From sequence record ON528742: a DNA stretch of 64,000 nucleotides; one strand, written 5' to 3'. Shown one piece after another: positions 2,623-63,827 of the stretch. Position 1 is the first letter of the stretch. The number at the start of each line of letters is the position of its first letter. The notes beneath the pieces were generated by a model. The model had not been told where the DNA came from and did not search any database. It saw nothing but the letters and a program-made list of their open reading frames with translations. The DNA comes from Shigella phage ESh32. The translations under genes and the position numbers were made by a program.

Positions 2623-2649
2623 TTTTCTATCAGTTAAGAGGAGAACAAC

Positions 2650-3111
2650 ATGACTATCAATACAGAAGTTTTTATCCGTCGAAATAAGCTTCGTCGTCAC
2701 TTTGAGTCGGAGTTTCGTCAAATTAACAATGAGATTCGTGAAGCATCAAAAGCAGCAGGAGTCTCATCGTTTCATCTAAAATATTCTCAACATCTTCTTG
2801 ATCGTGCAATTCAACGGGAGATTGATGAGACATATGTTTTTGAATTATTCCATAAAATAAAAGACCATGTTTTAGAAGTTAATGAATTCCTGAGTATGCC
2901 TCCGCGTCCTGACATTGACGAGGATTTTATTGATGGGGTTGAATATCGTCCTGGACGTTTAGAAATCACAGATGGAAATCTTTGGCTTGGATTTACGGTT
3001 TGTAAACCTAATGAGAAGTTCAAAGACCCGTCACTTCAATGTAGGATGGCAATTATCAACAGTCGTCGTTTACCAGGAAAGGCTTCTAAAGCAGTAATTA
3101 AAACTCAATGA
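2650..3111 (+). CDS. regB: RegB site-specific endoribonuclease
   Basis: 153-aa ORF matches remembered T4 RegB (MTINTEVFIRRNKLRRHFESEFRQ...); AAGAGGAG RBS. Confidence 0.8.
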   Translation: MTINTEVFIRRNKLRRHFESEFRQINNEIREASKAAGVSSFHLKYSQHLLDRAIQREIDETYVFELFHKIKDHVLEVNEFLSMPPRPDIDEDFIDGVEYRPGRLEITDGNLWLGFTVCKPNEKFKDPSLQCRMAIINSRRLPGKASKAVIKTQ

Positions 3112-6765: not shown

Positions 6766-6788
6766 AGTCTCCTTCGGGAGACTTTTTT
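6766..6788 (+). terminator. intrinsic terminator (UUCG-loop hairpin + T-tract)
   Basis: agtctccttcgggagact followed by tttttt. Confidence 0.7.
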
Positions 6789-6798
6789 CATTTTACCG

Positions 6799-6829
6799 GT
6801 TTACTTTCCGTTTGAGCTGTGATACTATA
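6799..6829 (+). promoter_or_regulatory. T4-type early promoter
   Basis: ggtttactttcc ... gatactatac; part of a cassette repeated at 47679-47771. Confidence 0.5.
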
Positions 6830-6856
6830 CAACTATCGGATAAAGAGGAGAACATC

Positions 6857-7610: not shown

Positions 7611-7640
7611 GTTTACAAGTTGGCAAGGTTATGGTATAGT
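7611..7640 (+). promoter_or_regulatory. T4-type early promoter
   Basis: gtttacaagttggcaaggttatggtatagt. Confidence 0.55.
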
Positions 7641-7668
7641 AATCTTGTCGACTGCCAAGGAGAAGAGA

Positions 7669-10505: not shown

Positions 10506-10531
10506 AGGGAGCCTTCGGGCTCCCTTTTTTA
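10506..10531 (+). terminator. intrinsic terminator
   Basis: agggagccttcgggctccct + tttttt. Confidence 0.8.
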
Positions 10532-10554
10532 TTTCAAAAATTTTTCACAAAGTT

Positions 10555-10584
10555 GTTTACAAGCATAAAGCTTTATGGTACTAT
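10555..10584 (+). promoter_or_regulatory. T4-type early promoter with A/T-rich upstream element (cassette copy A)
   Basis: aaaaatttttcacaaagttgtttacaag ... atggtactat. Confidence 0.6.
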
Positions 10585-10618
10585 ACAACTATCAACTGAT
10601 ACGGATTTGGAGAATAAA

Positions 10619-20438: not shown

Positions 20439-22252
20439 CAATTGAAAAAGAAATTGAAGGATTGATTCATAAAACTAATAAAGACCTTTTAAACGAGAAT
20501 GCTAATAAAGATTCTCGTGTTTTTCCAACTCAACGGGACCTTATGGCTGGTATTGTGTCTAAACACATTGCCAAAAATATGGTCCCGTCTTTTATTATGA
20601 AAGCGCATGAAAGCGGAATTATCCATTTCCATGATATTGATTATTCCCCTGCTCTTCCATTTACTAATTGCTGTTTAGTAGATTTAAAAGGAATGCTTGA
20701 AAACGGATTTAAGCTAGGTAATGCGCAGATTGAAACTCCTAAATCAATTGGCGTTGCTACTGCAATTATGGCACAAATTACTGCGCAAGTTGCTTCCCAT
20801 CAATATGGCGGAACGACTTTTGCGAATGTAGATAAAGTACTTTCTCCTTATGTTAAACGCACCTATGCAAAACATATTGAGGATGCAGAAAAATGGCAAA
20901 TCGCTGATGCGTTAAATTATGCTCAATCTAAAACAGAAAAAGATGTATACGATGCATTCCAAGCTTATGAATATGAAGTAAATACTCTCTTTAGTTCAAA
21001 CGGACAAACGCCTTTTGTAACAATTACATTTGGTACGGGAACTGACTGGACTGAACGAATGATTCAGAAAGCAATTCTGAAAAATCGTATTAAAGGTCTT
21101 GGTCGTGATGGGATAACTCCTATTTTCCCTAAGCTTGTTATGTTTGTTGAAGAAGGTGTTAATCTTTATAAAGATGATCCGAACTATGATATTAAACAGC
21201 TTGCTCTAGAGTGCGCAAGCAAAAGGATGTATCCTGATATTATTTCAGCTAAGAACAATAAAGCTATCACTGGTTCATCTGTTCCTGTTTCTCCGATGGG
21301 TTGCCGTAGTTTCTTGAGCGTATGGAAAGATTCGACTGGCAATGAAATTCTTGATGGACGTAATAATCTTGGTGTTGTAACACTGAATCTTCCTCGTATC
21401 GCATTAGATTCTTATATTGGAACACAGTTCAATGAACAGAAATTTATCGAATTGTTCAATGAACGAATGGATTTATGTTTTGAAGCTTTGATGTGTAGAA
21501 TTAGTTCCTTAAAAGGAGTTAAAGCGACTGTTGCTCCTATTCTTTACCAAGAAGGTGCATTCGGGGTTCGTCTTAAACCTGATGACGACATAATTGAGTT
21601 ATTTAAAAACGGTAGAAGTTCAGTGTCTTTAGGATACATTGGTATTCATGAATTGAATATTCTTGTCGGTCGTGATATTGGACAAGAAATTTTAACTAAA
21701 ATGAATGCTCGTCTTAAGCAGTGGACCGAAAGAACCGGTTTTGCTTTTAGCTTGTATTCTACTCCTGCTGAAAACCTTTGCTATCGCTTCTGTAAACTTG
21801 ATACTGAAAAATATGGAAGTGTAAAAGATGTTACTGATAAAGGCTGGTACACTAACAGTTTCCACGTTTCAGTAGAAGAAAATGTTACTCCGTTTGAAAA
21901 GATTTCTCGTGAAGCGCCATATCATTTCATTGCGACAGGTGGTCACATTTCTTATGTTGAACTTCCTGATATGAAAAATAACTTAAAAGGTCTTGAGGCT
22001 GTATGGGATTATGCCGCACAACATTTAGATTATTTTGGTGTTAATATGCCAGTGGATAAATGTTTTACATGTGGAAGTACCCATGAAATGACTCCTACTG
22101 AAAACGGATTTGTTTGTTCTATTTGTGGAGAAACTGATCCTAAAAAGATGAACACAATAAGAAGAACATGTGGTTATTTGGGAAATCCGAACGAACGCGG
22201 ATTTAATCTCGGTAAAAATAAAGAAATCATGCATAGGGTTAAACACCAATGA
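20435..22252 (+). CDS. nrdD: anaerobic ribonucleoside-triphosphate reductase, intronless
   Basis: 605 aa; C-terminal Zn ribbon CxxC...CxxC and glycyl-radical motif RRTCGY. Confidence 0.95.
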   Translation: MTIEKEIEGLIHKTNKDLLNENANKDSRVFPTQRDLMAGIVSKHIAKNMVPSFIMKAHESGIIHFHDIDYSPALPFTNCCLVDLKGMLENGFKLGNAQIETPKSIGVATAIMAQITAQVASHQYGGTTFANVDKVLSPYVKRTYAKHIEDAEKWQIADALNYAQSKTEKDVYDAFQAYEYEVNTLFSSNGQTPFVTITFGTGTDWTERMIQKAILKNRIKGLGRDGITPIFPKLVMFVEEGVNLYKDDPNYDIKQLALECASKRMYPDIISAKNNKAITGSSVPVSPMGCRSFLSVWKDSTGNEILDGRNNLGVVTLNLPRIALDSYIGTQFNEQKFIELFNERMDLCFEALMCRISSLKGVKATVAPILYQEGAFGVRLKPDDDIIELFKNGRSSVSLGYIGIHELNILVGRDIGQEILTKMNARLKQWTERTGFAFSLYSTPAENLCYRFCKLDTEKYGSVKDVTDKGWYTNSFHVSVEENVTPFEKISREAPYHFIATGGHISYVELPDMKNNLKGLEAVWDYAAQHLDYFGVNMPVDKCFTCGSTHEMTPTENGFVCSICGETDPKKMNTIRRTCGYLGNPNERGFNLGKNKEIMHRVKHQ

Positions 22253-22719
22253 ATTACGATAGATTTTATCCTTGCGATTTTGTTAATGGCCCTGGTTGCA
22301 GGGTCGTTCTTTTCGTTACAGGTTGTTTGCATAAATGCGAAGGGTGTTATAATAAATCAACATGGAATGCTAGAAATGGTATTCCATTCACTGGTGAAAC
22401 ACTAGAACAATTAATTGAATGTTTGAATAATGATTATATGGAAGGATTGACTATAACCGGAGGAGACCCTCTCTATCCTGATAACCGAGATGTTATTCAC
22501 TCTGTAGTTCAAACTATTAAAAATCTTTATCCCAATAAAAGCATTTGGTTGTGGACAGGATATAAGTTTGAAGATATTAAACAGCTAGAAATGCTTAAAT
22601 ATGTTGATGTTATTATTGATGGGAAGTATGAGAAAAATCTTCCGACCAAAAAGCTGTGGCGAGGATCAGATAATCAGCGACTTTGGTCAAATACCGATGG
22701 GGTGTGGACACATGATTAA
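22249..22719 (+). CDS. nrdG: anaerobic RNR activating enzyme (radical SAM)
   Basis: CLHKCEGC radical-SAM-type Cys cluster; ATGA overlap with nrdD. Confidence 0.9.
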   Translation: MNYDRFYPCDFVNGPGCRVVLFVTGCLHKCEGCYNKSTWNARNGIPFTGETLEQLIECLNNDYMEGLTITGGDPLYPDNRDVIHSVVQTIKNLYPNKSIWLWTGYKFEDIKQLEMLKYVDVIIDGKYEKNLPTKKLWRGSDNQRLWSNTDGVWTHD

Positions 22720-24424: not shown

Positions 24425-24625
24425 ATGAATCCTGAATCTATGTTATCGCAAAAGCTTCGTGAAGAACGCGCCAAATTTTTCCAGAACATGAAACACAATG
24501 GTATTGAGGATGAAGTTTTTCTAAATTGGTTCTGGAATAATAAGTATGCAGCATGCGAAGGAGCTTTGTCATTGTCAGTCGCAATGATGTACGAAGGCTG
24601 GAAGGGTGCCAAACAGTTTAGCTAA
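24425..24625 (+). CDS. hypothetical protein
   Basis: 66-aa ORF. Confidence 0.5.
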   Translation: MNPESMLSQKLREERAKFFQNMKHNGIEDEVFLNWFWNNKYAACEGALSLSVAMMYEGWKGAKQFS

Positions 24626-24642
24626 GGGCTTCGGCCCTTTTT
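24624..24642 (+). terminator. intrinsic terminator (AAGGGCUUCGGCCCUU hairpin)
   Basis: aagggcttcggccctt + ttt. Confidence 0.7.
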
Positions 24643-26817: not shown

Positions 26818-27012
26818 AAGATGAACACCCAGACTTCTGAAATAGATTATAATAAAATTCGTTCCTCTAAAGAGGAAATGATGAGACGCTTTAAAGAGTC
26901 TCATGATAAAGCTAAAGCAGAAGGAACTATAACATATAAGCGTATAAAATTTAGAAGCTCTAATGAGCCTCTATACGGTGTATTATGCGGATAGGAGCTT
27001 CAGCTCCTATAT

Positions 27013-27036
27013 TGCTTTATAAATTTTTGGTAAAAT
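27013..27036 (+). promoter_or_regulatory. candidate MotA-dependent middle promoter
   Basis: TGCTTTA box, 11 nt, then TAAAAT, upstream of alpha-gt. Confidence 0.4.
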
Positions 27037-27060
27037 AAACCAAAACAAAGAGGATATTAA

Positions 27061-28263
27061 ATGAAAGTATGTATTTTTATGGCTCGAGGTCTTGAAGGTT
27101 GTGGTGTAACAAAATTCTCACTCGAGCAACGTGATTGGTTTATTAAAAATGGTCATGAAGTGACTTTGGTTTATGCTAAAGATAAATCATTTACTCGTAA
27201 TTGCGCGCATGATTATAAATCATTTTCAATTCCGGTTTTATTGGCAAAAGAATACGATAAAACACTTAAGCTGGTAAATGATTGTGATATTCTAATTATC
27301 AATTCAGTTCCTGCTACTTCGGTTGAAGAAGACACTATTAATAACTATAAAAAAATTATTGATAACATTAAACCTTCTGTTCGTGTTGTAGTTTATCAGC
27401 ATGACCATTCTTCTCTTTCTTTGCGTCGAAATTTGGGATTAGAAGAAACTGTTCGTCGAGCTGATGTTATTTTTAGCCATTCTGATAATGGTGATTTTAA
27501 TAAAGTTCTGATGAAAGAATGGTATCCTGAAACAGTTTCTCTGTTTGATGATATTGAAGAAGCACCGACCGTATATAACTTTCAGCCTCCTATGGATATT
27601 GCGAAAGTTCGATCAACCTATTGGAAAGATGTTTCTGAAATTAATATGAATATCAACCGTTGGATTGGTCGTACGACTACATGGAAAGGTTTTTATCAGA
27701 TGTTTGATTTTCACGAAAAACATCTTAAACCTGCAGGACTAAGTACTATTATGGAAGGTCTGGAACGTTCTCCAGCGTTCATTCCTATTAAAGAAAAAGG
27801 AATTCCATACGAGTATTATCGTCTTCATCAAGTAGACCAAATTAAAATTGCTCCTAATTTGCCAACGCAAATTCTTGACCGTTATGTAAATAGCGAAATG
27901 CTTGAACGTATGAGTAAATCCGGTTTTGGTTATCAGTTGAGTAAGTTGGATAAAAAATATCTACAGCGCTCTTTAGAATATACTCATCTCGAGCTTGGTG
28001 CATGTGGAACAATTCCGGTATTTTGGAAATCTACTGGCGAAAATTTAAAATTCCGTGTTGATAATACTCCTTTGACCTCGCATGATAGCGGTATCATTTG
28101 GTTTGATGAAAATGATATGGAATCAACATTTGAACGTATTAAAGAACTGTCATCTGACCGAGCTCTTTATGACCGTGAGCGAGAAAAAGCATATGAATTT
28201 TTGTATCAGCACCAAGATTCAAGCTTCTGCTTTAAAGAACAGTTTGACATTATTACAAAATAA
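27061..28263 (+). CDS. a-gt: DNA alpha-glucosyltransferase
   Basis: 400 aa; matches remembered T4 alpha-gt (CIFMARGLEGCGVTKFSLEQRDWFIKNGHEVTLVYAKDKSF...). Confidence 0.9.
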   Translation: MKVCIFMARGLEGCGVTKFSLEQRDWFIKNGHEVTLVYAKDKSFTRNCAHDYKSFSIPVLLAKEYDKTLKLVNDCDILIINSVPATSVEEDTINNYKKIIDNIKPSVRVVVYQHDHSSLSLRRNLGLEETVRRADVIFSHSDNGDFNKVLMKEWYPETVSLFDDIEEAPTVYNFQPPMDIAKVRSTYWKDVSEINMNINRWIGRTTTWKGFYQMFDFHEKHLKPAGLSTIMEGLERSPAFIPIKEKGIPYEYYRLHQVDQIKIAPNLPTQILDRYVNSEMLERMSKSGFGYQLSKLDKKYLQRSLEYTHLELGACGTIPVFWKSTGENLKFRVDNTPLTSHDSGIIWFDENDMESTFERIKELSSDRALYDREREKAYEFLYQHQDSSFCFKEQFDIITK

Positions 28264-28280
28264 AGGGCTTCGGCCCTTTA
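28263..28280 (+). terminator. UUCG-loop hairpin terminator
   Basis: aagggcttcggccctt directly after alpha-gt stop. Confidence 0.6.
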
Positions 28281-28302
28281 GCTTTATACGGAGTTTGATA
28301 TA

Positions 28303-28443
28303 ATGATATTTCTTGGATATGTGATACTTTTTCTTGCATTTTATCTATTCACTAGAGCATGTTGGATTGGGTTCTTTAGCACACCAGATGGGTTTATTTC
28401 AATAATTTTATTTTGCATTTCAATGACGGTTCTTGATATATGA
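28303..28443 (+). CDS. possible small membrane peptide
   Basis: 46 codons read from sequence, hydrophobic; ATGA overlap with gene 47 start. Confidence 0.35.
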   Translation: MIFLGYVILFLAFYLFTRACWIGFFSTPDGFISIILFCISMTVLDI

Positions 28444-31585: not shown

Positions 31586-31599
31586 TTTATAAGAGATTA

Positions 31600-31623
31600 T
31601 GCTTTAATTTATTAGAGTATAAT
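31600..31623 (+). promoter_or_regulatory. candidate MotA-dependent middle promoter inside a 9-bp inverted repeat
   Basis: TGCTTTA, 11 nt, TATAAT; flanked by agagattat / ataatctct. Confidence 0.5.
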
Positions 31624-31640
31624 CTCTATGGAGGAAAAAC

Positions 31641-32283: not shown

Positions 32284-32970
32284 ATGAAACTGTCTAAAGA
32301 TACACTGAATATTTTGAAAAATTTCGCTACTATTAACTCCGGTATTATGCTTAAATCCGGTCAATTTATTATGACTCGCGCAGTTAATGGTACAACTTAT
32401 GCGGAAGCAAATATTTCTGACGTTATTGATTTTGATGTAGCAATTTACGATTTGAACGGTTTTCTCGGTATTCTGTCTCTAGTTAATGATGATGCAGAAA
32501 TTTCCCAGTCAGAAGATGGAAATATTAAAATTGCTGATGCTCGCTCAACAATTTTTTGGCCAGCAGCCGATCCGAGTACAGTAGTTGCTCCTAATAAACC
32601 AATTCCATTCCCGGTAGCATCTGTTGTTACTGAAATTAAAGCTGAAGACCTTCAACAGCTGTTGCGTGTATCTCGTGGTCTGCAAATTGATACAATTGCT
32701 ATCACGGTAAAAGAAGGTAAAATCGTAATTAACGGTTTTAATAAAGTAGAAGATTCTGCTTTGACTCGTGTTAAATATTCTTTGACTCTTGGTGATTATG
32801 ATGGTGAAAATACATTTAATTTCATTATCAATATGGCAAATATGAAAATGCAACCAGGAAATTATAAACTTCTGCTCTGGGCAAAAGGTAAACAAGGTGC
32901 TGCTAAATTTGAAGGTGAACACGCGAATTATGTAGTAGCTCTTGAAGCTGATTCTACCCACGATTTTTAA
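32284..32970 (+). CDS. 45: sliding clamp gp45
   Basis: 228 aa; matches remembered T4 gp45. Confidence 0.9.
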   Translation: MKLSKDTLNILKNFATINSGIMLKSGQFIMTRAVNGTTYAEANISDVIDFDVAIYDLNGFLGILSLVNDDAEISQSEDGNIKIADARSTIFWPAADPSTVVAPNKPIPFPVASVVTEIKAEDLQQLLRVSRGLQIDTIAITVKEGKIVINGFNKVEDSALTRVKYSLTLGDYDGENTFNFIINMANMKMQPGNYKLLLWAKGKQGAAKFEGEHANYVVALEADSTHDF

Positions 32971-32973
32971 TAG

Positions 32974-32990
32974 AGGGCTTCGGCCCTTTA
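32974..32990 (+). terminator. UUCG-loop hairpin (terminator or attenuator)
   Basis: agggcttcggccct followed by ttataattt. Confidence 0.5.
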
Positions 32991-33021
32991 TAATTTACAC
33001 TAAAACTTGAATGAGGAAATT

Positions 33022-34926: not shown

Positions 34927-35163
34927 ATGACACAATCAGAGATTCAGTTTACCGAAGCTTTTCTAATATTCGAAAATCTAAAACAAGCATATGGTCTGTC
35001 TTCTACTCAACTGGTTTTTGACCTCCCGGAAGATAAACAAATAGAATTCCAAAAAGAATTCCAACGATTAGTTTACCCACGCCAACGCGCATTTCATGCG
35101 ATTATCAAAACCACAAATAAAGATGGCAAGTCCGTTATATCGCGTCGTACAATAGAAATTTAA
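34927..35163 (+). CDS. hypothetical protein
   Basis: ORF 34876..35163; ATG at 34927. Confidence 0.5.
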   Translation: MTQSEIQFTEAFLIFENLKQAYGLSSTQLVFDLPEDKQIEFQKEFQRLVYPRQRAFHAIIKTTNKDGKSVISRRTIEI

Positions 35164-35168
35164 AGCAA

Positions 35169-35187
35169 AGGGGCTTCGGCCCCTTAT
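35169..35187 (+). terminator. UUCG-loop hairpin
   Basis: aggggcttcggcccct. Confidence 0.5.
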
Positions 35188-35204
35188 TTGGAGTATAATA
35201 TATC

Positions 35205-35243
35205 AAGAGCCTAATAACTCGGGCTATAAACTAAGGAATATCT
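35205..35243 (+). promoter_or_regulatory. gene 43 translational operator (hairpin + RBS)
   Basis: agccu-aauaacuc-gggcu hairpin (5-bp stem, 8-nt loop) then AAGGA RBS and ATG at 35244. Confidence 0.6.
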
Positions 35244-38917: not shown

Positions 38918-39658
38918 ATGATTAGTGACTCTATGACAGTTGAAGAAATCCGTCTTCATTTGGGGCTTGCATTAAAAGAAAAAGATTTCGTAGTTGATAA
39001 AACTGGTGTTAAAACTATTGAAATTATTGGCGCATCATTTGTAGCAGATGAACCGTTTATTTTTGGCGCTCTTAATGATGAATACATTCAGCGTGAACTT
39101 GAATGGTATAAATCTAAGAGCTTGTTTGTTAAAGATATTCCAGGTGAAACACCAAAGATTTGGCAGCAGGTCGCATCTTCTAAAGGCGAAATTAATTCGA
39201 ATTACGGTTGGGCTATTTGGTCAGAAGATAACTACGCCCAGTATGATATGTGTTTAGCTGAACTTGGTCAAAACCCTGATTCTCGACGTGGTATTATGAT
39301 TTATACTCGTCCATCCATGCAATTTGACTACAATAAAGATGGTATGTCAGATTTCATGTGTACTAATACAGTACAGTACCTGATTCGTGATAAGAAAGTC
39401 AATGCAGTAGTAAGCATGCGCTCAAATGACGTGGTCTTCGGATTCCGTAATGATTATGCATGGCAAAAATACGTATTAGATAAATTAGTATTTGATTTGA
39501 ATGCCGGCGATTCAACTCGTCAGTATAAAGCAGGTTCTATTATATGGAATGTCGGAAGTCTTCATGTATATTCTCGTCATTTTTACTTGGTTGATCATTG
39601 GTGGAATACTGGCGAAACTCATATTGTGAAAAAAGACTATAAAGGTGAGTGGAAATGA
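38918..39658 (+). CDS. 42: dCMP hydroxymethylase gp42
   Basis: 246 aa; thymidylate-synthase-like fold; matches remembered T4 gp42. Confidence 0.9.
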   Translation: MISDSMTVEEIRLHLGLALKEKDFVVDKTGVKTIEIIGASFVADEPFIFGALNDEYIQRELEWYKSKSLFVKDIPGETPKIWQQVASSKGEINSNYGWAIWSEDNYAQYDMCLAELGQNPDSRRGIMIYTRPSMQFDYNKDGMSDFMCTNTVQYLIRDKKVNAVVSMRSNDVVFGFRNDYAWQKYVLDKLVFDLNAGDSTRQYKAGSIIWNVGSLHVYSRHFYLVDHWWNTGETHIVKKDYKGEWK

Positions 39659-40497
39659 TTCAATTCGTAATTCCAAGTTATCAGCGTGTCGGGGCAGTTT
39701 CTGCCCTTGATATGTTTCCGACTGATTATGAACCCCATATTGTAGTGCGTGAACATGAAGAAAAAGCTTATTATGATGCCTATGGGTCTAGAGCTAAAAT
39801 TATAACTATTCCTGATGATGTAAACGGAATTGCCGGTACTCGTAAAGCAATTACTGATATGTATGCAGGTCAACGAATCTGGATGATTGACGATGATACT
39901 ACTATTCGTATGAGTTCAATGCGAAAAAGAGATGACCGTCGTTGTGTGGATAAAGTCAATCAATTAACCCGTGAACAGTTCTATGAATTGATTCAATACG
40001 TCGAAGATGCCATGGATTGTGGGTATTATCACGGTCATGCTCGTCTACCTATTTTTAAAATTACTTCATCTTGGGGTAATTATCGTGAAAATTCATATGG
40101 ATTCACGAATACATGGTATGACCTCGGAAAACTTACTACAGAACAAATTGGGTATGGAAAAATTGATTTGTGCGAAGATATGTATGCATTTCTCAATTTA
40201 ATTAATCAAGGTTATCCGCATTTGGCCTTGTTCAAATATCTGGTTGTATCTGGAAAAGCACAAGCTCCTGGCGGGTGCAGTTCAATTCGTAGTAATTCTA
40301 AACATAATAGAGCGCTTGAGCAAATCAATAGAGAGTTTCCAGAGCAAGCTCGTTGGAAAACTTCTAATATTGAAAAACGAAAATCGTTGGGTGAAGAAGA
40401 CGAGCCATTAAAGGTTCTTCGCATGTGTGTTTCGCGCAAAGAAAAATCAGAAGCATTTCATAAGTTTAATGCTATTCATCCGATAGCAGTTGATTAA
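39649..40497 (+). CDS. GT-A fold glycosyltransferase at the beta-gt locus
   Basis: DxD motif WMIDDDT; unrelated to remembered T4 beta-gt sequence. Confidence 0.6.
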   Translation: MEMIQFVIPSYQRVGAVSALDMFPTDYEPHIVVREHEEKAYYDAYGSRAKIITIPDDVNGIAGTRKAITDMYAGQRIWMIDDDTTIRMSSMRKRDDRRCVDKVNQLTREQFYELIQYVEDAMDCGYYHGHARLPIFKITSSWGNYRENSYGFTNTWYDLGKLTTEQIGYGKIDLCEDMYAFLNLINQGYPHLALFKYLVVSGKAQAPGGCSSIRSNSKHNRALEQINREFPEQARWKTSNIEKRKSLGEEDEPLKVLRMCVSRKEKSEAFHKFNAIHPIAVD

Positions 40498-40521
40498 TGC
40501 CTAAATTTATTGTGTTATAAT
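40497..40521 (+). promoter_or_regulatory. weak candidate middle promoter upstream of uvsX
   Basis: TGCCTAA (imperfect MotA box), 12 nt, TATAAT. Confidence 0.3.
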
Positions 40522-40574
40522 TACTCTATCTTTAACCAGTGAGGAAAATATAATGATGCCTATGGAAAAAATGA

Positions 40575-41756
40575 ATGTCTATTGCAGATTTAAAATCCCG
40601 TTTGATTAAAGCTTCAACTTCTAAAATGACTGCTGAACTGACTACATCTAAATTCTTTAATGAAAAGGATGTAATCCGTACAAAAATCCCAATGCTTAAT
40701 ATTGCTATTTCTGGTGCGATTGATGGCGGCATGCAGTCTGGTTTAACTATTTTCGCAGGGCCTTCTAAACACTTTAAATCAAATATGTCTTTGACTATGG
40801 TTGCGGCATATTTGAACAAATATCCTGACGCGGTTTGTCTATTCTATGATAGCGAATTTGGTATCACTCCAGCTTATTTGCGATCTATGGGAGTTGACCC
40901 GGAACGAGTAATTCATACACCAATCCAGTCAGTTGAACAGCTGAAAATTGATATGGTGAACCAGCTTGAAGCTATTGAGCGTGGTGAAAAGGTTATTGTA
41001 TTCATCGACTCAATTGGTAATATGGCTTCTAAGAAAGAAACGGAAGATGCCTTGAATGAAAAATCTGTGGCAGATATGACTCGTGCTAAATCACTGAAGT
41101 CATTATTCCGTATTGTTACTCCTTACTTTAGCATTAAAAATATTCCATGTGTTGCGGTTAACCATACAATTGAAACAATTGAAATGTTTAGTAAAACCGT
41201 GATGACAGGCGGTACAGGCGTAATGTATTCGGCTGATACTGTATTCATTATCGGTAAACGTCAGATTAAAGATGGTTCTGATCTTCAGGGATATCAATTT
41301 GTTCTAAATGTAGAAAAATCTCGTACCGTTAAAGAAAAAAGTAAATTCTTTATTGATGTTAAATTTGACGGTGGTATCGATCCTTATTCTGGATTGTTAG
41401 ATATGGCTCTAGAATTAGGATTTGTAGTAAAACCTAAAAATGGCTGGTATGCTCGTGAATTTCTTGACGAAGAAACCGGTGAGATGATTCGCGAAGAAAA
41501 ATCTTGGCGTGCAAAAGATACCAACTGCACTACATTCTGGGGTCCTTTATTTAAGCATCAACCATTCCGAGATGCTATTAAACGTGCTTATCAGTTAGGT
41601 GCTATTGATAGTAATGAAATTGTTGAAGCTGAAGTTGATGAATTGATTAACTCAAAGGTTGAAAAATTTAAATCTCCAGAAAGTAAAAGTAAATCAGCAG
41701 CTGATTTAGAAACTGACCTCGAGCAGTTAAGTGATATGGAAGAATTTAATGAATAA
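40575..41756 (+). CDS. uvsX: RecA-like recombinase UvsX
   Basis: 393 aa; Walker A GPSKHFKS; matches remembered T4 UvsX. Confidence 0.95.
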   Translation: MSIADLKSRLIKASTSKMTAELTTSKFFNEKDVIRTKIPMLNIAISGAIDGGMQSGLTIFAGPSKHFKSNMSLTMVAAYLNKYPDAVCLFYDSEFGITPAYLRSMGVDPERVIHTPIQSVEQLKIDMVNQLEAIERGEKVIVFIDSIGNMASKKETEDALNEKSVADMTRAKSLKSLFRIVTPYFSIKNIPCVAVNHTIETIEMFSKTVMTGGTGVMYSADTVFIIGKRQIKDGSDLQGYQFVLNVEKSRTVKEKSKFFIDVKFDGGIDPYSGLLDMALELGFVVKPKNGWYAREFLDEETGEMIREEKSWRAKDTNCTTFWGPLFKHQPFRDAIKRAYQLGAIDSNEIVEAEVDELINSKVEKFKSPESKSKSAADLETDLEQLSDMEEFNE

Positions 41757-42093
41757 AGATGATTTAGACTTAGATCTAGAAATTATCGATGAATCCCCCT
41801 CTTCGGAGGGGGAAGAAGAAAGAAAAGAACGTCTTTTTAATGAGTCTCTTAAGATAATTAAATCCGCTATGGAAAATGTTATCCAGGAGATTGTCATTAA
41901 ACTAGAAGATGGTTCTACACACATTGTGTATGTGACAAAATTAGATTGGGTTAATGGAAAAGTCGTAATGGACTTTGCTGTTCTTGACCAAGAAAGAAAA
42001 GCTGAGTTAGCTCCTCATGTAGAAAAATGTATTACAATGCAACTACAAGATGCATTTAATAAAAGGTCAAAGAAAAAGTTTAAATTCTTTTAA
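41749..42093 (+). CDS. 40: head assembly protein gp40-like
   Basis: ORF 41731..42093; ATG at 41749; position between uvsX and 41. Confidence 0.65.
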   Translation: MNKDDLDLDLEIIDESPSSEGEEERKERLFNESLKIIKSAMENVIQEIVIKLEDGSTHIVYVTKLDWVNGKVVMDFAVLDQERKAELAPHVEKCITMQLQDAFNKRSKKKFKFF

Positions 42094-43530: not shown

Positions 43531-43559
43531 TTTACAAGCTGACAAGACTATGGTATAGT
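43530..43559 (+). promoter_or_regulatory. T4-type early promoter
   Basis: gtttacaagctgacaagactatggtatagt. Confidence 0.6.
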
Positions 43560-43587
43560 AGTCTTGTTGGTTAATGAGGAGATTGTT

Positions 43588-46782: not shown

Positions 46783-46806
46783 TGCTTTATATATTTATTG
46801 TATAAT
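46783..46806 (+). promoter_or_regulatory. candidate MotA-dependent middle promoter for gene 56
   Basis: TGCTTTA, 11 nt, TATAAT. Confidence 0.5.
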
Positions 46807-46840: not shown

Positions 46841-47359
46841 ATGGCTTACTTTAACGAATGTTCACAACTGATTGAAGGCGCTGATAAAGCTCAAAATGAA
46901 TATTGGGATATTCTCGGTGATGAAAAAGACCCGCTGCAGGTAATGCTCGATATGCAGAAATCTCTGCAAGTTCGTTTAGCTAAAGATAAACCTGAATATA
47001 ATCGTCATCCTGATGACTTGGCTACTGCAGGTGAAGTTGTTGATTGGTTGCGTAATCAGAAAGATTATATTGACGATGAATTCCGTGAACTTCTGACTTC
47101 TCTTGGTGGTATGAGCAATGGTGAAAAAGATGCATCTGCTGTATGGAAACCTTGGAAGTCGCAGCATGGTGAACGTCGTGAAACTCTGATTACTGATTTG
47201 TCTCCACAAGACCAATTGGAAATTAAATTTGAAATGATTGATATTCTCCATTTCGTTCTGAACATGTTCCAAGGTCTTGGTCTTACAGCAGAAGAAATCT
47301 TTAAACTTTATTATCTAAAAAATGCCGAAAACTTTGCTCGTCAAGACCGAGGTTATTAA
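46841..47359 (+). CDS. 56: dCTPase/dCDPase gp56 (MazG-like)
   Basis: ORF 46748..47359; ATG at 46841 gives 172 aa MAYFNECSQLIEGADKAQNEYWDILGDEKDPLQ... Confidence 0.85.
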   Translation: MAYFNECSQLIEGADKAQNEYWDILGDEKDPLQVMLDMQKSLQVRLAKDKPEYNRHPDDLATAGEVVDWLRNQKDYIDDEFRELLTSLGGMSNGEKDASAVWKPWKSQHGERRETLITDLSPQDQLEIKFEMIDILHFVLNMFQGLGLTAEEIFKLYYLKNAENFARQDRGY

Positions 47360-47389
47360 CAGCTCGTCTTAAAAGCCGCGAGAATTTAT

Positions 47390-47397
47390 TATAAATA
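47390..47397 (+). promoter_or_regulatory. late promoter TATAAATA upstream of soc
   Basis: exact TATAAATA about 30 nt upstream of soc ATG. Confidence 0.6.
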
Positions 47398-47673: not shown

Positions 47674-47678
47674 ATTCA

Positions 47679-47704
47679 AGGACTCCTTCGGGAGTCCTTT
47701 TTTC
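47679..47704 (+). terminator. intrinsic terminator
   Basis: aggactccttcgggagtcct + tttttt. Confidence 0.8.
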
Positions 47705-47712
47705 ATTTTATG

Positions 47713-47742
47713 GTTTACTTTCCAAAATGAGTATGGTATAAT
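47713..47742 (+). promoter_or_regulatory. T4-type early promoter
   Basis: gtttactttccaaaatgagtatggtataat. Confidence 0.6.
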
Positions 47743-47768
47743 AAAAATATCTTATAGAGGAGAACACC

Positions 47769-56095: not shown

Positions 56096-56124
56096 TTTAC
56101 AAACTCTTGGGATCAGAGTATAAT
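56095..56124 (+). promoter_or_regulatory. T4-type early promoter
   Basis: gtttacaaactcttgggatcagagtataat. Confidence 0.6.
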
Positions 56125-56168
56125 GGTCCTGTGGAGTATAAAACCTTTTTAACAAGTGAGAGATAATT

Positions 56169-58034: not shown

Positions 58035-58295
58035 ATGAAATATGTTAATCGTTCTATCGCAGCATTAGTATTAGCAGTATCTTTAGTAGGATGTACTGAT
58101 GCTGATAATGCAACCAAAGTTTTATCTTCAAGTGGTTTTACTAATATTGAAATCACTGGATATAATTGGTTTGGTTGTTCTGAAAATGATTTCCAACATA
58201 CTGGATTTCGTGCTATTGGACCTACTGGGCAGAAAGTAGAAGGAACCGTGTGTTCTGGTCTATTCTTCAAGGATTCGACTATCCGTTTTAAATAA
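58035..58295 (+). CDS. lipoprotein
   Basis: ORF 58026..58295 (GTG); ATG at 58035; lipobox LVGC. Confidence 0.5.
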   Translation: MKYVNRSIAALVLAVSLVGCTDADNATKVLSSSGFTNIEITGYNWFGCSENDFQHTGFRAIGPTGQKVEGTVCSGLFFKDSTIRFK

Positions 58296-58296
58296 A

Positions 58297-58313
58297 AGGC
58301 CTTCGGGCCTTTA
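58297..58313 (+). terminator. UUCG-loop hairpin
   Basis: aggccttcgggcct followed by ttagcttta. Confidence 0.55.
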
Positions 58314-58364
58314 GCTTTATGATTGCCGGAGTATAATATTCCCGAAACCAAACGAGGATAAGTG

Positions 58365-60182
58365 ATGATTAAGAATGAAATTAAAATTCTGAGCGATATT
58401 GAACATATCAAAAAGCGTAGTGGCATGTATATTGGCTCTTCTGCTAATGAAATGCATGAGCGCTTTCTGTTTGGTAAATGGGAAAGTGTTCAGTATGTAC
58501 CTGGTCTTGTTAAGCTTATTGATGAAATTATCGATAACTCAGTAGATGAAGGTATTCGTACTAAGTTTAAATTCGCAAATAAAATTAATGTTACTATTAA
58601 AAACAATCAAGTAACAGTTGAAGATAACGGTCGCGGTATTCCACAGGCGATGGTTAAAACACCTACCGGTGAAGAAATTCCTGGTCCTGTTGCTGCATGG
58701 ACTATTCCAAAAGCAGGTGGTAACTTTGGTGATGATAAAGAACGTGTCACCGGTGGTATGAATGGTGTTGGTTCTAGTTTAACTAACATTTTTTCTGTGA
58801 TGTTTGTCGGTGAAACTGGCGATGGTCAAAATAATATTGTAGTTCGTTGTTCAAATGGCATGGAAAATAAATCCTGGGAAACTATTCCAGGAAAATGGAA
58901 AGGAACCCGTGTTACTTTCATTCCTGATTTTATGTCATTTGAAACTAATGAGCTGTCCCAAGTTTATCTTGACATTACACTAGATCGTCTCCAGACACTT
59001 GCTGTTGTTTATCCTGATATTCAATTTACTTTTAATGGTAAAAAGGTTCAGGGCAATTTTAAGAAATATGCACGACAGTATGATGAACATGCTATTGTTC
59101 AAGAACAAGAAAATTGTTCTATTGCGGTTGGTCGTTCACCGGATGGTTTTCGTCAATTAACTTACGTGAATAACATTCATACTAAGAATGGTGGCCATCA
59201 CATTGACTGTGTTATGGATGATATTTGCGAAGACCTTATTCCACAAATCAAACGTAAATTCAAAATTGATGTAACTAAAGCACGCGTTAAAGAATGTTTG
59301 ACTATCGTTATGTTTGTTCGTGATATGAAAAACATGCGATTTGATTCTCAAACTAAAGAGCGTTTGACTTCTCCATTTGGCGAAATTCGTAGTCATATTC
59401 AGCTTGATGCTAAAAAGATTTCACGCGCTATTCTAAATAATGAAGCAATTTTAATGCCGATTATTGAAGCTGCTTTAGCACGTAAATTGGCGGCAGAAAA
59501 AGCAGCAGAAACTAAAGCAGCTAAAAAGGCTTCTAAAGCTAAGGTTCATAAACATATCAAAGCGAATCTTTGTGGTAAAGATGCTGACACTACTCTTTTC
59601 TTGACTGAGGGTGATTCTGCTATCGGATATCTTATTGATGTTCGTGATAAAGAACTTCATGGTGGTTATCCATTGCGCGGTAAAGTTCTTAATAGTTGGG
59701 GTATGTCATATGCTGATATGCTTAAAAACAAAGAACTATTTGATATTTGCGCAATCACTGGATTAGTTCTTGGTGAAAAAGCTGAAAACTTGAATTATCA
59801 TAATATTGCTATTATGACCGATGCTGACCATGATGGTTTAGGAAGCATTTATCCTTCTCTGCTCGGATTTTTTAGTAATTGGCCAGAACTGTTTGAACAA
59901 GGAAGAATTCGCTTTGTCAAAACTCCTGTAATCATCGCTCAGGTCGGTAAAAAACAAGAATGGTTTTATACAGTCGCTGAATATGAGAGTGCCAAAGATG
60001 CTCTACCTAAACATAGCATCCGTTATATTAAGGGACTTGGCTCTTTGGAAAAATCTGAATATCGTGAGATGATTCAAAACCCAGTATATGATGTTGTTAA
60101 ACTTCCTGAGAACTGGAAAGAGCTTTTTGAAATGCTCATGGGAGATAATGCTGACCTTCGTAAAGAATGGATGAGCCAGTAG
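58365..60182 (+). CDS. 39: DNA topoisomerase II ATPase subunit gp39, unsplit (T4 gp39 + gp60 equivalent in one ORF)
   Basis: 605 aa from ATG at 58365 (track ORF starts GTG 58362); GHKL ATPase N-terminus; C-terminus continuous through MTDADHDGLGSI...RKEWMSQ. Confidence 0.9.
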   Translation: MIKNEIKILSDIEHIKKRSGMYIGSSANEMHERFLFGKWESVQYVPGLVKLIDEIIDNSVDEGIRTKFKFANKINVTIKNNQVTVEDNGRGIPQAMVKTPTGEEIPGPVAAWTIPKAGGNFGDDKERVTGGMNGVGSSLTNIFSVMFVGETGDGQNNIVVRCSNGMENKSWETIPGKWKGTRVTFIPDFMSFETNELSQVYLDITLDRLQTLAVVYPDIQFTFNGKKVQGNFKKYARQYDEHAIVQEQENCSIAVGRSPDGFRQLTYVNNIHTKNGGHHIDCVMDDICEDLIPQIKRKFKIDVTKARVKECLTIVMFVRDMKNMRFDSQTKERLTSPFGEIRSHIQLDAKKISRAILNNEAILMPIIEAALARKLAAEKAAETKAAKKASKAKVHKHIKANLCGKDADTTLFLTEGDSAIGYLIDVRDKELHGGYPLRGKVLNSWGMSYADMLKNKELFDICAITGLVLGEKAENLNYHNIAIMTDADHDGLGSIYPSLLGFFSNWPELFEQGRIRFVKTPVIIAQVGKKQEWFYTVAEYESAKDALPKHSIRYIKGLGSLEKSEYREMIQNPVYDVVKLPENWKELFEMLMGDNADLRKEWMSQ

Positions 60183-62639: not shown

Positions 62640-63578
62640 ATGTACAATATTAAATGCCTGACCAAAAACGAACAAGCTGAAATTGTTAAACTGTATTCAA
62701 GCGGTAATTATACTCAGCAGGAATTGGCTGATTGGCAAGGTGTATCGGTTGATACAATCCGTCGTGTTTTGAAAAATGCTGAAGAAGCTAAACGCTCTAA
62801 AGTTACTATTAGCGGTGATATTACAGTTAAAGTTAATAGCGATGCAGTTATTGCTCCAGTTACTAAATCTGACATTATTTGGAATGCATCTAAAAAATTC
62901 ATTTCGATTACTGTCGATGGTGTAACTTATAATGCAACACCTAATACTCATTCAAACTTCCAGGAAATTCTCAATCTGCTTGTAGCGGATAAGCTGGAAG
63001 AAGCGGCACAAAAAATTAATGTTCGTCGCGCTGTTGAAAAATATATTTCCGGCGATGTTCGAATTGAAGGTGGAAGCTTATTCTATCAAAATATTGAATT
63101 GCGGTCTGGTTTGGTTGATCGTATTCTTGATTCGATGGAAAAAGGCGAAAACTTTGAATTTTATTTTCCGTTCTTGGAAAATCTGCTGGAAAACCCAAGC
63201 CAGAAAGCGGTATCTCGACTTTTTGATTTCTTGGTAGCAAACGATATTGAAATTACAGAAGATGGTTACTTCTATGCTTGGAAAGTAGTTCGCAATAATT
63301 ACTTTGACTGTCACTCAAATACCTTTGATAACAGTCCTGGTAAAGTAGTTAAAATGCCGCGTACTCGTGTGAATGACGATGATACACAAACTTGTTCTCG
63401 TGGTCTGCATGTGTGTTCTAAATCTTATATTCGTCACTTCGGTGGTTCAACCAGCCGAGTTGTAAAAGTTAAAGTTCATCCTCGTGATGTAGTATCAATT
63501 CCGATTGATTACAACGACGCTAAAATGCGTACCTGCCAATACGAAGTAATTGAAGACGTTACTGAACAATTTAAATAA
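62640..63578 (+). CDS. rIIB: rIIB protein
   Basis: 312 aa immediately downstream of rIIA; matches remembered T4 rIIB. Confidence 0.9.
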   Translation: MYNIKCLTKNEQAEIVKLYSSGNYTQQELADWQGVSVDTIRRVLKNAEEAKRSKVTISGDITVKVNSDAVIAPVTKSDIIWNASKKFISITVDGVTYNATPNTHSNFQEILNLLVADKLEEAAQKINVRRAVEKYISGDVRIEGGSLFYQNIELRSGLVDRILDSMEKGENFEFYFPFLENLLENPSQKAVSRLFDFLVANDIEITEDGYFYAWKVVRNNYFDCHSNTFDNSPGKVVKMPRTRVNDDDTQTCSRGLHVCSKSYIRHFGGSTSRVVKVKVHPRDVVSIPIDYNDAKMRTCQYEVIEDVTEQFK

Positions 63579-63592
63579 GGGCTTCGGCCCTT
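63577..63592 (+). terminator. UUCG-loop hairpin (no clear T-tract)
   Basis: aagggcttcggccctt overlapping rIIB stop. Confidence 0.4.
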
Positions 63593-63606
63593 AACTAAGG
63601 AAAATT

Positions 63607-63804: not shown

Positions 63805-63827
63805 AAGGGCTTCGGCCCTTTTGTTTT
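63805..63827 (+). terminator. intrinsic terminator
   Basis: aagggcttcggccctt + ttgtttt. Confidence 0.7.

Follow-up and report, generated by a model that had tools for sequence, protein, structure and literature searches.

C(UUCG)G intercistronic hairpins and their association with middle promoters in a T4-like Shigella phage

A hairpin that recurs between genes of Shigella phage ESh32 is very probably the C(UUCG)G tetraloop hairpin that T4-type phages carry between cistrons, acting in RNA, and the '-10' boxes that follow three of its copies are, as comparison with T4 firmly supports, those of the T4 middle promoters P47, P43 and P39. The window analysed here, a stretch of 64,000 nucleotides (nt) of this genome (ON528742), comes from a Tequatrovirus (T4-like phage), has about 96-99% identity with T4 and related phages, and is collinear with T4 from position 64942 down to 1 and then through rIIB; its + strand is the strand transcribed early and in the middle period. 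The finding is real and long known, as both the hairpins and P47, P43 and P39 are in the T4 literature already, and the result rediscovers two textbook features of T4, UUCG tetraloop hairpins and MotA-dependent middle promoters. UUCG tetraloop hairpins, which were first described from these very intercistronic regions, were reportedly the subject of work on T4 mRNA by Tuerk et al. in 1988, and the T4 middle promoter literature that is said to cover these sites includes Guild in 1988 and Hsu & Karam in 1990.

Results

The core sequence GGGCTTCGGCCC was found six times in the window, at 24626, 28265, 32975, 35171, 63579 and 63807, always on the + strand, against 0.01 occurrences expected from 100 dinucleotide shuffles. 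A seventh copy at 58298, GGCCTTCGGGCC, also on the + strand, has one G-C pair swapped compared with the others. Four copies (24624, 28263, 63577 and 63805) match the whole 16-mer AAGGGCTTCGGCCCTT exactly, and the remaining three copies are close variants. The initial annotation had put the hairpin at no fewer than seven occurrences, which these counts bear out at a frequency far above chance, though seven is an undercount of the class: the - strand of the window has no C(UUCG)G hairpin with a stem of at least 6 bp, the + strand has 11, of which the further ones are at 6772, 10513, 41801 and 47686, and to these is added a module at 26991-27043 with a UUCA loop. C-TTCG-G, that is, a UUCG loop closed by a C-G pair, is present in all seven copies, the stems of which have 6-9 bp with 3-5 G-C pairs and a predicted folding energy of -10.7 to -13.2 kcal/mol in 35-nt windows. 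The copies begin 0-5 nt past a stop codon or overlap it. Because a DNA-level palindrome would be indifferent to the strand carrying TTCG, the 11:0 strand bias argues for a function in RNA. An Rfam scan of the whole window at the gathering threshold returned no family, Rfam having no model for these hairpins.

Several hairpins stand without a middle promoter. Between the homologues of T4 55.3 and 55.2, the hairpin AAGGGC-UUCG-GCCCUU (24624..24639, +) has UUUUUGG directly on its 3' side and is hence terminator-like, with no promoter after it, and the hairpin AAGGGC-UUCG-GCCCUU located 3' of the denB.1 homologue (63805..63820, +) is followed by UUUUGUUUU and is likewise terminator-like. Right after the rIIB stop, the hairpin UAAGGGC-UUCG-GCCCUUA (63576..63593, +) has neither a U-tract (UUAACUAAGG) nor a promoter. 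The hairpin AUAGAGGGC-UUCG-GCCCUUUAU between genes 45 and 44 (32970..32991, +) has no promoter after it, and orthologues of this site keep the hairpin and not the U-tract. A hairpin of the same class, UCCCCCUC-UUCG-GAGGGGGA (41794..41813, +), lies just past the uvsX stop, within the start of gene 40, and has no U-tract. Three other hairpins of the + strand form PeSL-type cassettes with early promoters, as described for the PST/T4 pair (Arbiol 2010, PMC2839356; Comeau 2014, PMC4122927). In these, the stem AGUCUCC-UUCG-GGAGACU (6766..6842) is followed by a U-run and an early-promoter-like GTTTAC...TACTAT, AGGGAGCC-UUCG-GGCUCCCU (10506..10592) by a U-run and an early-promoter-like GTTTACA...TGGTACTAT, and AAGGACUCC-UUCG-GGAGUCCUU (47678..47745) by a U-run and the early promoter GTTTACT-N17-TATAAT.

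Other copies are packed against middle promoters. The a-gt stop codon (28261-28263) lies inside the 5' arm of the hairpin UAAAGGGC-UUCG-GCCCUUUA (28261..28280, +), and P47 (28277..28311, +) comprises the MotA box TTTAGCTTTA at 28277-28286, a 12-bp spacer, the -10 element TATAAT at 28299-28304 and the start at 28311. The 3' arm of the hairpin ends with the first 4 nt of this box, TTTA, the spacer contains GGAG (28290-28293), which is the Shine-Dalgarno sequence of 47.1, and the -10 element overlaps the 47.1 ATG (28303). Right after the stop of the 39.1 homologue, the hairpin AAAGGCC-UUCG-GGCCUUU (58295..58312, +) overlaps P39 (58310..58344, +), in which the MotA box TTTAGCTTTA at 58310-58319 is followed by a 12-bp spacer ending in GGAG (58328-58331), the -10 element TATAAT at 58332-58337 and the start at 58344, with the gene 39 ATG at 58365. 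A fourth hairpin-promoter module, the one with the UUCA loop (26991..27043, +), is located upstream of a-gt and consists of the hairpin ATAGGAG-CUUCAG-CUCCUAU at 26991-27010, the MotA box TATTGCTTTA at 27010-27019, 11 bp and the -10 element TAAAAT at 27031-27036; its start at 27043 was transferred from T4 PmobB, the counterpart of which drives a-gt in the window because mobB is absent. The P47 and P39 boxes match 9 of the 10 positions of (a/t)(a/t)(a/t)TGCTTtA at 12 bp from the -10 element, carrying AGCTT instead of TGCTT, and the a-gt promoter box matches all 10 at 11 bp. The sequence AGCTTTAT is thus a MotA box, the TTT of which doubles as the hairpin U-tail; this box had been overlooked in the initial annotation, and the promoters are not plain sigma-70 promoters.

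The third of the initially noted hairpin-promoter copies, AAGGGGC-UUCG-GCCCCUU (35168..35185, +), begins 4 nt past the stop of ORF 43.1 and precedes the P43 core (35190..35204, +), with GGAG at 35190-35193, TATAAT at 35194-35199 and a start at 35204 carried over from T4. The -10 element is TATAAT at 28299, 35194 and 58332 and TAAAAT at 27031. The flank reported as shared by the three copies holds for two of them: TTTAGCTTTAT is present only at 28263 and 58297, which have the 13-mer CCTTTAGCTTTAT in common (the 11-mer is expected 0.045 times), whereas the copy at 35169 has CTTATTTGGAGTATAAT and lacks AGCTTTAT. Similarly, of the GGAGT(T)TATAAT said to be common to the three, 35190 and 58328 have GGAGTATAAT exactly (expected 0.09), whereas 28290 has GGAGTTTGATATAAT instead.

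The proposal that a new promoter stands upstream of genes 47, 43 and 39 agrees with the mapped T4 promoters. The T4 starts of P47 (36576), P43 (29933) and P39 (5349) correspond to 28311, 35204 and 58344 at a sequence identity of 98.5-100%, and lie 4-6 nt past TATAAT; with PmobB included, the flanks of the mapped starts are 94-100% identical to the window. As the T4 GenBank records AF158101 and NC_000866 list neither promoters nor terminators in the regions inspected, the starts were taken from Table 1 of Hinton 2010 (PMC2988021) and carried to the window by homology; literature searches found no genome-wide data set of T4 start sites or termination sites. Of the matches in a MotA-type scan, 19 are on the + strand, 12 of these at mapped T4 starts, and a single one is on the - strand. 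The sites resemble the T4 middle promoters in the sigma-70 -10 element, a MotA box centred near -30 and an identical start-site sequence (Hinton 2010, PMC2988021). By analogy with T4, the literature on which supplies the dependence, P47, P43 and P39 are considered to be MotA/AsiA-dependent middle promoters. Both motA and asiA lie outside the window.

P43 departs from this pattern although it is a mapped middle promoter in the T4 list (Hinton 2010, PMC2988021). The MotA-type scan and inspection of the sequence revealed neither GCTT nor a separate MotA box 12±1 bp upstream of the P43 TATAAT, and the consensus model thus leaves its MotA dependence unexplained. The GCTTCG of the hairpin stands 15 bp from TATAAT and would fit only with GAGTAT (35191-35196), an alternative and weaker -10 element, or relative to the published start; with that start as +1, the hairpin's GCTT would lie at -31 to -28 and GCTTCG at -31 to -26. 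It may be that T4-type P43 lost approximately 11 bp, present in PG7-type phages, relative to other genera and takes the GCTTCG of the hairpin for its MotA box. No assignment of the P43 box was found in the literature searched. This compacted T4-type P43 without a canonical box may be of interest to specialists.

In JS98-like, PG7-like and Cronus-like phages, among others, the hairpin, box and -10 element are retained at the same sites. The stems of orthologous hairpins differ, and their loops are UUCG, UACG, UCCG, GCAA or UUAG. For a set of 30 distinct orthologous hairpins, the share of cells that pair is 95.7%, a percentage biased upward because the hairpins were chosen for folding, and six of the seven pairs have changed on both sides. 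Since the loop substitutions stay within stable RNA tetraloops and the orientation is 11:0, selection on RNA is indicated. Compared with the T4 reference, the a-gt/47.1 and 39.1/39 hairpins show no differences, the regA/43 hairpin is identical across the aligned core, and the other copies differ by one base in one arm only. The window, which belongs to a relative of T4 and not to T4 itself, has in common with the T4 C(UUCG)G hairpins the UUCG loop, the C-G closure, the short G+C-rich stem and the intercistronic position, and no substantive difference was seen. T4 mRNA is where the unusually stable UUCG hairpin was first found (summarised by Hall 2015, PMC4371310).

A further detail concerns GGA(G/U). 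Of 25 distinct promoter variants linked to a hairpin (39, 43 and 47 sites of several genera), 22 have it abutting the -10 element, as against none of 11 variants without a hairpin. By hand reading of the window, it is present at three of the four hairpin-linked mapped promoters and at 0 of the 22 other mapped promoters. On the + strand, a RegB-like pattern in which an A-rich 7-mer follows GGA(G/U) has 6 occurrences, where 0.86 would be expected. The sequence GGAGUAUAAUA at 35190 (P43) and 58328 (P39) keeps A6, Y7, A8, R9 and A11 of the RegB consensus. Compared with RegB/S1 sites (GGAGRAYARAA; Durand 2006, PMC1702504), it thus retains the most conserved A6, A8 and A11, and GGAUGAUAAAA and GGAUGAUAGAA of relatives match the consensus fully. 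The candidate P43 and P39 GGAGs differ from such sites in not being Shine-Dalgarno sequences: that role holds for 47.1 only, as no ATG follows GGAG at P43 and P39. The regB gene is encoded in the window at 2650-3111.

Discussion

Considering these results, we propose the following scenario. At a-gt.2/a-gt, a-gt/47.1, 43.1/43 and 39.1/39, the hairpin directly abuts a probable MotA/AsiA-dependent middle promoter, and its U-tail is the A/T-rich 5' portion of the MotA box (TTTAGCTTTA), with the sigma-70 -10 element (TATAAT) 12 bp downstream. Approximately 1 min into infection, RNA polymerase with AsiA-remodelled sigma-70, together with MotA at -30, would initiate 4-6 nt past the -10 element, and genes 47/46, 43 and 39 would thereby receive middle-mode transcripts independent of read-through. 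Where a U-run is present, the hairpin may partially terminate or attenuate, in the manner of an intrinsic terminator, transcripts from upstream early promoters, and every copy could serve as a stable 3' cap against exonucleases. This explanation draws here on sequence, strand bias, stop-codon position, identity with mapped promoters and cross-genus conservation with stem changes, and takes start sites, MotA dependence and tetraloop stability from the literature.

The conserved unit may even have four parts, namely the hairpin, the MotA box, GGA(G/U) and the -10 element, with the -10 region read twice, although we regard this as unlikely. In DNA the region would be the -10 element of a promoter, and in read-through early RNA the same GGAG followed by UAUAAUA would be a RegB/S1 cleavage site. 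A cut by RegB, 10-15 nt upstream of the middle start, would leave the upstream cistron of the early transcript capped by the UUCG hairpin and a downstream RNA nearly equivalent to the middle transcript. The GGAG of 47.1 is a published RegB site described as 'moderately cleaved' (Durand 2006, PMC1702504), and RegB processing has been reported to stimulate gp43 synthesis. No report of RegB cleavage at the P43 or P39 GGAG was found in the literature searched. Cleavage at these GGAGs may already be published, and the Uzan laboratory is said to have tested all intergenic GGAGs of T4 for RegB cleavage. Judged by sequence, GGA(G/U) upstream of the -10 element at hairpin-linked promoters is possibly an under-described detail that resembles a RegB site; its tight linkage to these promoters, with a RegB site perhaps overlapping the -10 element, is a point of possible specialist interest.

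The initial annotation read the three promoter-linked copies as terminators, a role that is plausible from their sequence and that stands as far as the stable GC hairpin at every copy is concerned. Intergenic T4 stem-loops, often with UUCG, have been described as transcription terminators (Durand 2006, PMC1702504), and the copies resemble intrinsic terminators in having a G+C-rich hairpin followed by U residues. However, most of the seven differ from intrinsic terminators in their U-tract, which is clear at 24624 (UUUUU) and 63805 but interrupted at 28261 and 58295 (UUUAGCUUUAU), 32970 and 35168, and absent at 63576. It is interrupted at all three promoter-linked copies (UUUAGCUUUAU, CUUAUUUGG), which were not called by a terminator scan of the + strand. 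With U-tracts interrupted or absent and the promoter-linked copies not called by the scan, termination may be weak or absent at several copies. They also differ in that a stop codon overlaps the 5' arm, where a terminating ribosome could hinder folding. The hairpins might then be purely post-transcriptional, that is, 3'-exonuclease barriers, processing landmarks or folding insulators that do not terminate, their proximity to promoters reflecting the short spacers of T4. We consider this doubtful but a real possibility. The copies at 63579 and 41801 and the 45/44 orthologues have no usable U-tract, co-expression of flanking genes such as 45-44-62 is known, and the fit of GGA(G/U) at hairpin-linked promoters to the RegB consensus suggests that the RNA is cut and then trimmed as far as the hairpin. 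On the other hand, textbook U-runs are present at 24624, 63805, 6766, 10506 and 47678, in orthologues the U-run is kept, forming the 5' portion of the MotA box (TTTTTGCTTT), and, besides the naming of T4 stem-loops as terminators in the literature, PeSL stem-loops stopped transcription in reporter assays.

It was also suggested initially that the copies are shared regulatory modules or recombination substrates. The former agrees with the PeSL/PmSL descriptions: PmSLs use a Mot box and a -10 element, with a stem-loop directly past the upstream stop (Arbiol 2010, PMC2839356; Comeau 2014, PMC4122927), and the order of stem-loop after the upstream stop, promoter, Shine-Dalgarno and next ATG was confirmed here. 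That the units are chiefly DNA-level recombination cassettes, of the PeSL/PmSL or GGGC/GCCC kind, with regulation secondary, appears rather improbable. The modules would then be short homologies, or a protein target, for the insertion, deletion or swapping of genes between phages. This has a precedent (Mosig 1998) and is weakly supported by the present analysis. PeSL mini-circles and PmSLs have been described (Arbiol 2010, PMC2839356; Comeau 2014, PMC4122927), and in the account of Mosig 1998 given by Arbiol 2010, GGGC took part in half of 13 T4 deletions, in some cases together with GCCC as an inverted repeat; the GGGC...GCCC motif is the same as here. The a-gt gene is bracketed by two hairpin-GCTTTATA modules (26991-27043 and 28261-28311), and in JS98-type genomes without a-gt a single module joins a-gt.2 directly to 47.1. 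ORF 43.1, which adjoins the P43 hairpin on its upstream side, is present in some relatives and absent or variable in others, and T4 homology resumes 1 nt before that hairpin. The modules are set in core replication and recombination gene clusters, with the a-gt cassette and the variable ORF 43.1 adjoining them and most copies away from breakpoints.

Apart from the a-gt cassette, however, there was no clear link between hairpins and breakpoints. Only one of the seven copies lies within 10 nt of a breakpoint between the window and T4, and a hand comparison placed approximately 6 of 39 breakpoints within approximately 35 nt of any stable hairpin, against approximately 2.6 expected, a mild excess that is confounded by the clustering of both at gene boundaries. 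A hairpin-mediated 43.1 indel was rejected, as the ends of the T4 deletion are TTAAG/TTAAAG microrepeats at the two stop codons, outside the hairpin, and no indel seen here has both ends in GGGC/GCCC motifs. The identity common to the copies spans only 12-16 bases (a 13-mer for P47 versus P39), far below the approximately 50 bp cited for efficient homologous recombination in T4, and recombination between the P47 and P39 copies would be lethal, as it would remove 30 kb of essential genes. The three window modules also differ from PeSLs and PmSLs in sitting in conserved replication and recombination clusters and not in hyperplastic regions. A DNA cruciform or recombination as the primary function was down-weighted by the strictly strand-specific loop orientation (11:0) and the confinement of substitutions to stable RNA tetraloops. 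Still less credible, to the point of being negligible, is the idea that chance or composition produced the repeats, or that they are small REP/MITE-like mobile elements, and that they play no part in the expression of phage genes. Only the shortness of the element speaks for such an origin; shuffle-based expectations and the complete strand bias rule out chance, the position is fixed at stop codons, orthologues are conserved across genera with compensatory stem changes, and the hairpin flanks show no terminal repeats or target-site duplications.

The intercistronic hairpin, very probably acting in RNA and next to middle promoters at some sites, is of value for annotation, as the hairpin, MotA box and -10 element are transferable by homology to new T4-like genomes. 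In many Tequatrovirus records, these sites are marked only as 'terminator' or are unannotated.

A recurrent UUCG hairpin at gene ends

The recurrent hairpin reported in the initial annotation is real and far above chance. A motif scan located GGGCTTCGGCCC six times, on the + strand only (24626, 28265, 32975, 35171, 63579 and 63807), against 0.01 expected from shuffles, and the copy at 58298 reads GGCCTTCGGGCC, in which one G-C pair is swapped and pairing is retained. All copies have a UUCG loop and a 6-9 bp stem folding at -10.7 to -13.2 kcal/mol, and every copy starts at a stop codon or at most 5 nt away. By T4 homology, these + strand copies occupy the junctions 55.3/55.2 (24626), a-gt/47.1 (28265), 45/44 (32975), 43.1/43 (35171), 39.1/39 (58298), rIIB/denB.1 (63579) and denB.1/denB (63807). 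The T4 reference is one base short in one hairpin arm at 55.3/55.2 (24624-24639), 45/44 (32970-32991), rIIB/denB.1 (63576-63593) and denB.1/denB (63805-63820), leaving imperfect stems there; a gel-compression error made in the older sequencing, or else a genuine difference, might explain this.

BLAST against T4 showed the window to be collinear with T4 from 64942 down to 1 and then into rIIB, and the + strand is thus the strand transcribed early and in middle mode in T4. Hundreds of Tequatrovirus genomes matched 1-kb and 12-kb queries around the finding at 95-99% identity, with a-gt, 47, 46, 45, 44, 62 and 43 annotated beneath the matches, and G+C is 31-37% across the whole window. CTTCGG is over-represented (34 observed, 12 expected), and C(UUCG)G hairpins with stems of at least 6 bp number 11 on the + strand and none on the - strand. 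Since the reverse complement would carry a CGAA loop, this asymmetry points to the RNA, not a DNA palindrome, as the target of selection. At 6766, 10506 and 47678 the hairpin leads into a long U-run, after which comes an early-promoter-like GTTTAC...TAtaAT, and a UCCG-loop hairpin with a U-run lies 3' of gene 43 (37953). A near-identical pair with 14-bp stems and the loop TGGTATAG was also observed at 7618-7653 (-17.6 kcal/mol) and 43537-43572 (-18.0 kcal/mol), the latter 6 nt past a stop codon.

Orthologous regions upstream of 47, 43, 44 and 39 were taken from IMG/VR, the relatives sampled including JS98/IME281-like (Dhakavirus by organism tally), Enterobacter phage PG7-like and Erwinia phage Cronus-like genomes. 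Most orthologues have a hairpin at the same place with a different stem and a UUCG, UACG, UCCG, GCAA, UUAG, CUAGU or UAAC loop. Among 30 distinct 22-mers, 95.7% of cells were paired, with both-side changes in six of seven pairs and with slid and shuffled controls well below, though the 22-mers had been selected for folding and the informative part is the stem variety at fixed positions rather than the 95.7%. Upstream of 39, 43 and 47, the T-run merging into the MotA box (the activator site of middle promoters) and the -10 are also kept. At 45/44 the orthologues keep the hairpin without a conserved U-tract, which fits a role in RNA stability or processing better than strong termination.

Hairpin-linked middle promoters

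T4 and its relatives were already known to have this hairpin-promoter arrangement as a whole. The 58 mapped T4 middle promoters listed by Hinton (2010, PMC2988021) include P47 (start at 36576), P43 (29933), P39 (5349) and PmobB (38682). The T4 sequences at these four starts are the same hairpin-flank sequences as in the window, where the starts carried over by alignment (28311, 35204, 58344 and 27043, respectively) fall 4-6 nt past the -10. By the published rule, the MotA box, (a/t)(a/t)(a/t)TGCTTtA, stands 12±1 bp upstream of a sigma-70 -10. P47 and P39 read TTTAGCTTTA, 12 bp and TATAAT, and the a-gt promoter reads TATTGCTTTA, 11 bp and TAAAAT; the element first read as AGCTTTAT is therefore a MotA box, its leading T's doubling as hairpin 3' arm and U-tail. 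The proposed terminator-promoter fusion was correct in essence, but it missed that the promoters depend on MotA. Its common flank held in part: CCTTTAGCTTTAT is shared by the copies at 28263 and 58297 but not by that at 35169, and GGAGTATAAT is exact at 35190 and 58328, whereas 28290 reads GGAGTTTGATATAAT.

A scan for MotA-type promoters gave 19 matches on the + strand and one on the - strand, 12 coinciding with mapped T4 starts. Seven + strand matches without a carried-over start (46784, 62488, 32349, 49041, 20348, 24310 and 62233) may be unmapped or diverged middle promoters; that at 46784, TATTGCTTTA-11-TATAAT, is close to the position of T4 P56/69. The P45.2 middle promoter (31592-31627) sits within a 14-bp inverted repeat, with its MotA box TTATGCTTTA in the 5' arm and its -10 TATAAT in the 3' arm, so that read-through RNA would fold a hairpin of -17 kcal/mol.

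At P43, no GCTT was found 11-13 bp from TATAAT. The same site in other genera has the hairpin and a separate box (CTGCTAT, TTACTTTA, ATGCTAT or ATGCTCA) at 11-12 bp, and the distance from hairpin to -10 is about 11 bp shorter in T4-type phages. Measured from the published start, the GCTT within the hairpin itself occupies -31 to -28, the region that the middle-promoter review gives for the box core, and a weaker -10, GAGTAT, would then be 12 bp downstream of it. From this spacing, we infer that MotA may use the hairpin sequence itself at P43. Directly after the P43 start is the gp43 translational operator (35207-35243), a hairpin GAGCC-UAAUAACUC-GGGCU followed by the ribosome-binding site; in relatives the stem has changed in a compensatory way to GAGAC/GGUCU and the loop is kept.

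T4 middle genes are known to be expressed by two routes, read-through from early promoters and initiation at middle promoters. We propose that the hairpins act as RNA 3'-end elements, as attenuators where a U-run follows and as exonuclease barriers in general. On this reading, the three, really four, composite sites compactly fuse such a hairpin with a MotA/AsiA-dependent promoter, from which replication and recombination genes are transcribed anew in middle mode. With a stop codon in or beside the 5' arm, a terminating ribosome would cover that arm, and hairpin formation could be modulated by translation. The terminator scan also gave - strand calls at 28261-28280 and 35166-35186, because the A-rich upstream sequence is a T-run on that side; antisense transcription could also be stopped there.

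GGA(G/U) and putative RegB sites

Of 25 distinct promoter variants linked to a hairpin at the 39, 43 and 47 sites, 22 have GGA(G/U) immediately before the -10, compared with none of 11 variants that lack a hairpin; because the variants are phylogenetically related, the comparison is not a formal probability. The T4 endoribonuclease RegB, with S1, targets GGAG/U plus an A-rich 7-mer in which A6, A8 and A11 are the best conserved, and the 47.1 GGAG is a published moderate site (Durand 2006, PMC1702504). GGAGUAUAAUA keeps these three positions, GGAUGAUAAAA and GGAUGAUAGAA from relatives fit the consensus fully, and the RegB-type pattern occurs six times on the + strand against 0.86 expected. The GGAG at 35190 is the only one between 43.1 and gene 43, and gp43 synthesis is reportedly stimulated by RegB processing. 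The -10 may thus have a second use, contributing to a RegB site once it is copied into read-through RNA. A search of older literature or a small experiment might be worthwhile for two points only, this link of GGA(G/U) to the hairpins and the T4-type P43 without a box.

The window encodes regB (2650-3111; PF10715), and its own Shine-Dalgarno region GGAGAACAACA (feature 2640-3111) matches the target consensus, which fits the published self-cleavage. Another consensus match, GGAGUAUAAAA, follows a stem-loop at 56108-56143 (UGGGAUCA...UGGUCCUG).

Recombination and differences from T4

The copies had been suggested to be regulatory modules or recombination substrates, and both ideas are published. 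PeSLs, stem-loop terminators with early promoters, recombine into mini-circles, and PmSLs use Mot boxes (Arbiol 2010, PMC2839356; Comeau 2014, PMC4122927); in T4 deletions reported by Mosig et al. (1998, as cited by Arbiol 2010), GGGC was involved, at times with GCCC as an inverted repeat. The recombination idea thus has clear precedent, and one locus agrees with it: the window has a hairpin-GCTTTATA module on either side of a-gt, and in JS98-type genomes without a-gt one module joins a-gt.2 to 47.1, which fits cassette gain or loss. However, no more than 12-16 identical bases are common to the copies, a breakpoint relative to T4 is within 10 nt of just one of the seven, and the absence of ORF 43.1 from T4 is bounded by TTAAG/TTAAAG microrepeats at the two stop codons, not by the hairpin. 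A general role of the modules as recombination substrates is improbable.

The small ORF 43.1 (34927-35163, between regA and the P43 hairpin) matches PF25760 (Phage RB18 ORF43.1) and is variable or absent in relatives. T4 has more homing-endonuclease genes than ESh32, in which mobC, mobB, segF and the nrdD intron carrying I-TevII are absent and the b-gt/segA region differs (differences at 20970-20973, 22249-22269, 27045-27070, 47359-47390 and 39640-40587). The T4 segment with mobA, 60.1, the 5' part of gene 60 and the translational bypass is likewise absent, and the topoisomerase large-subunit gene (58362-60182), compared with T4 3911-2806, is unsplit and encodes 606 aa.
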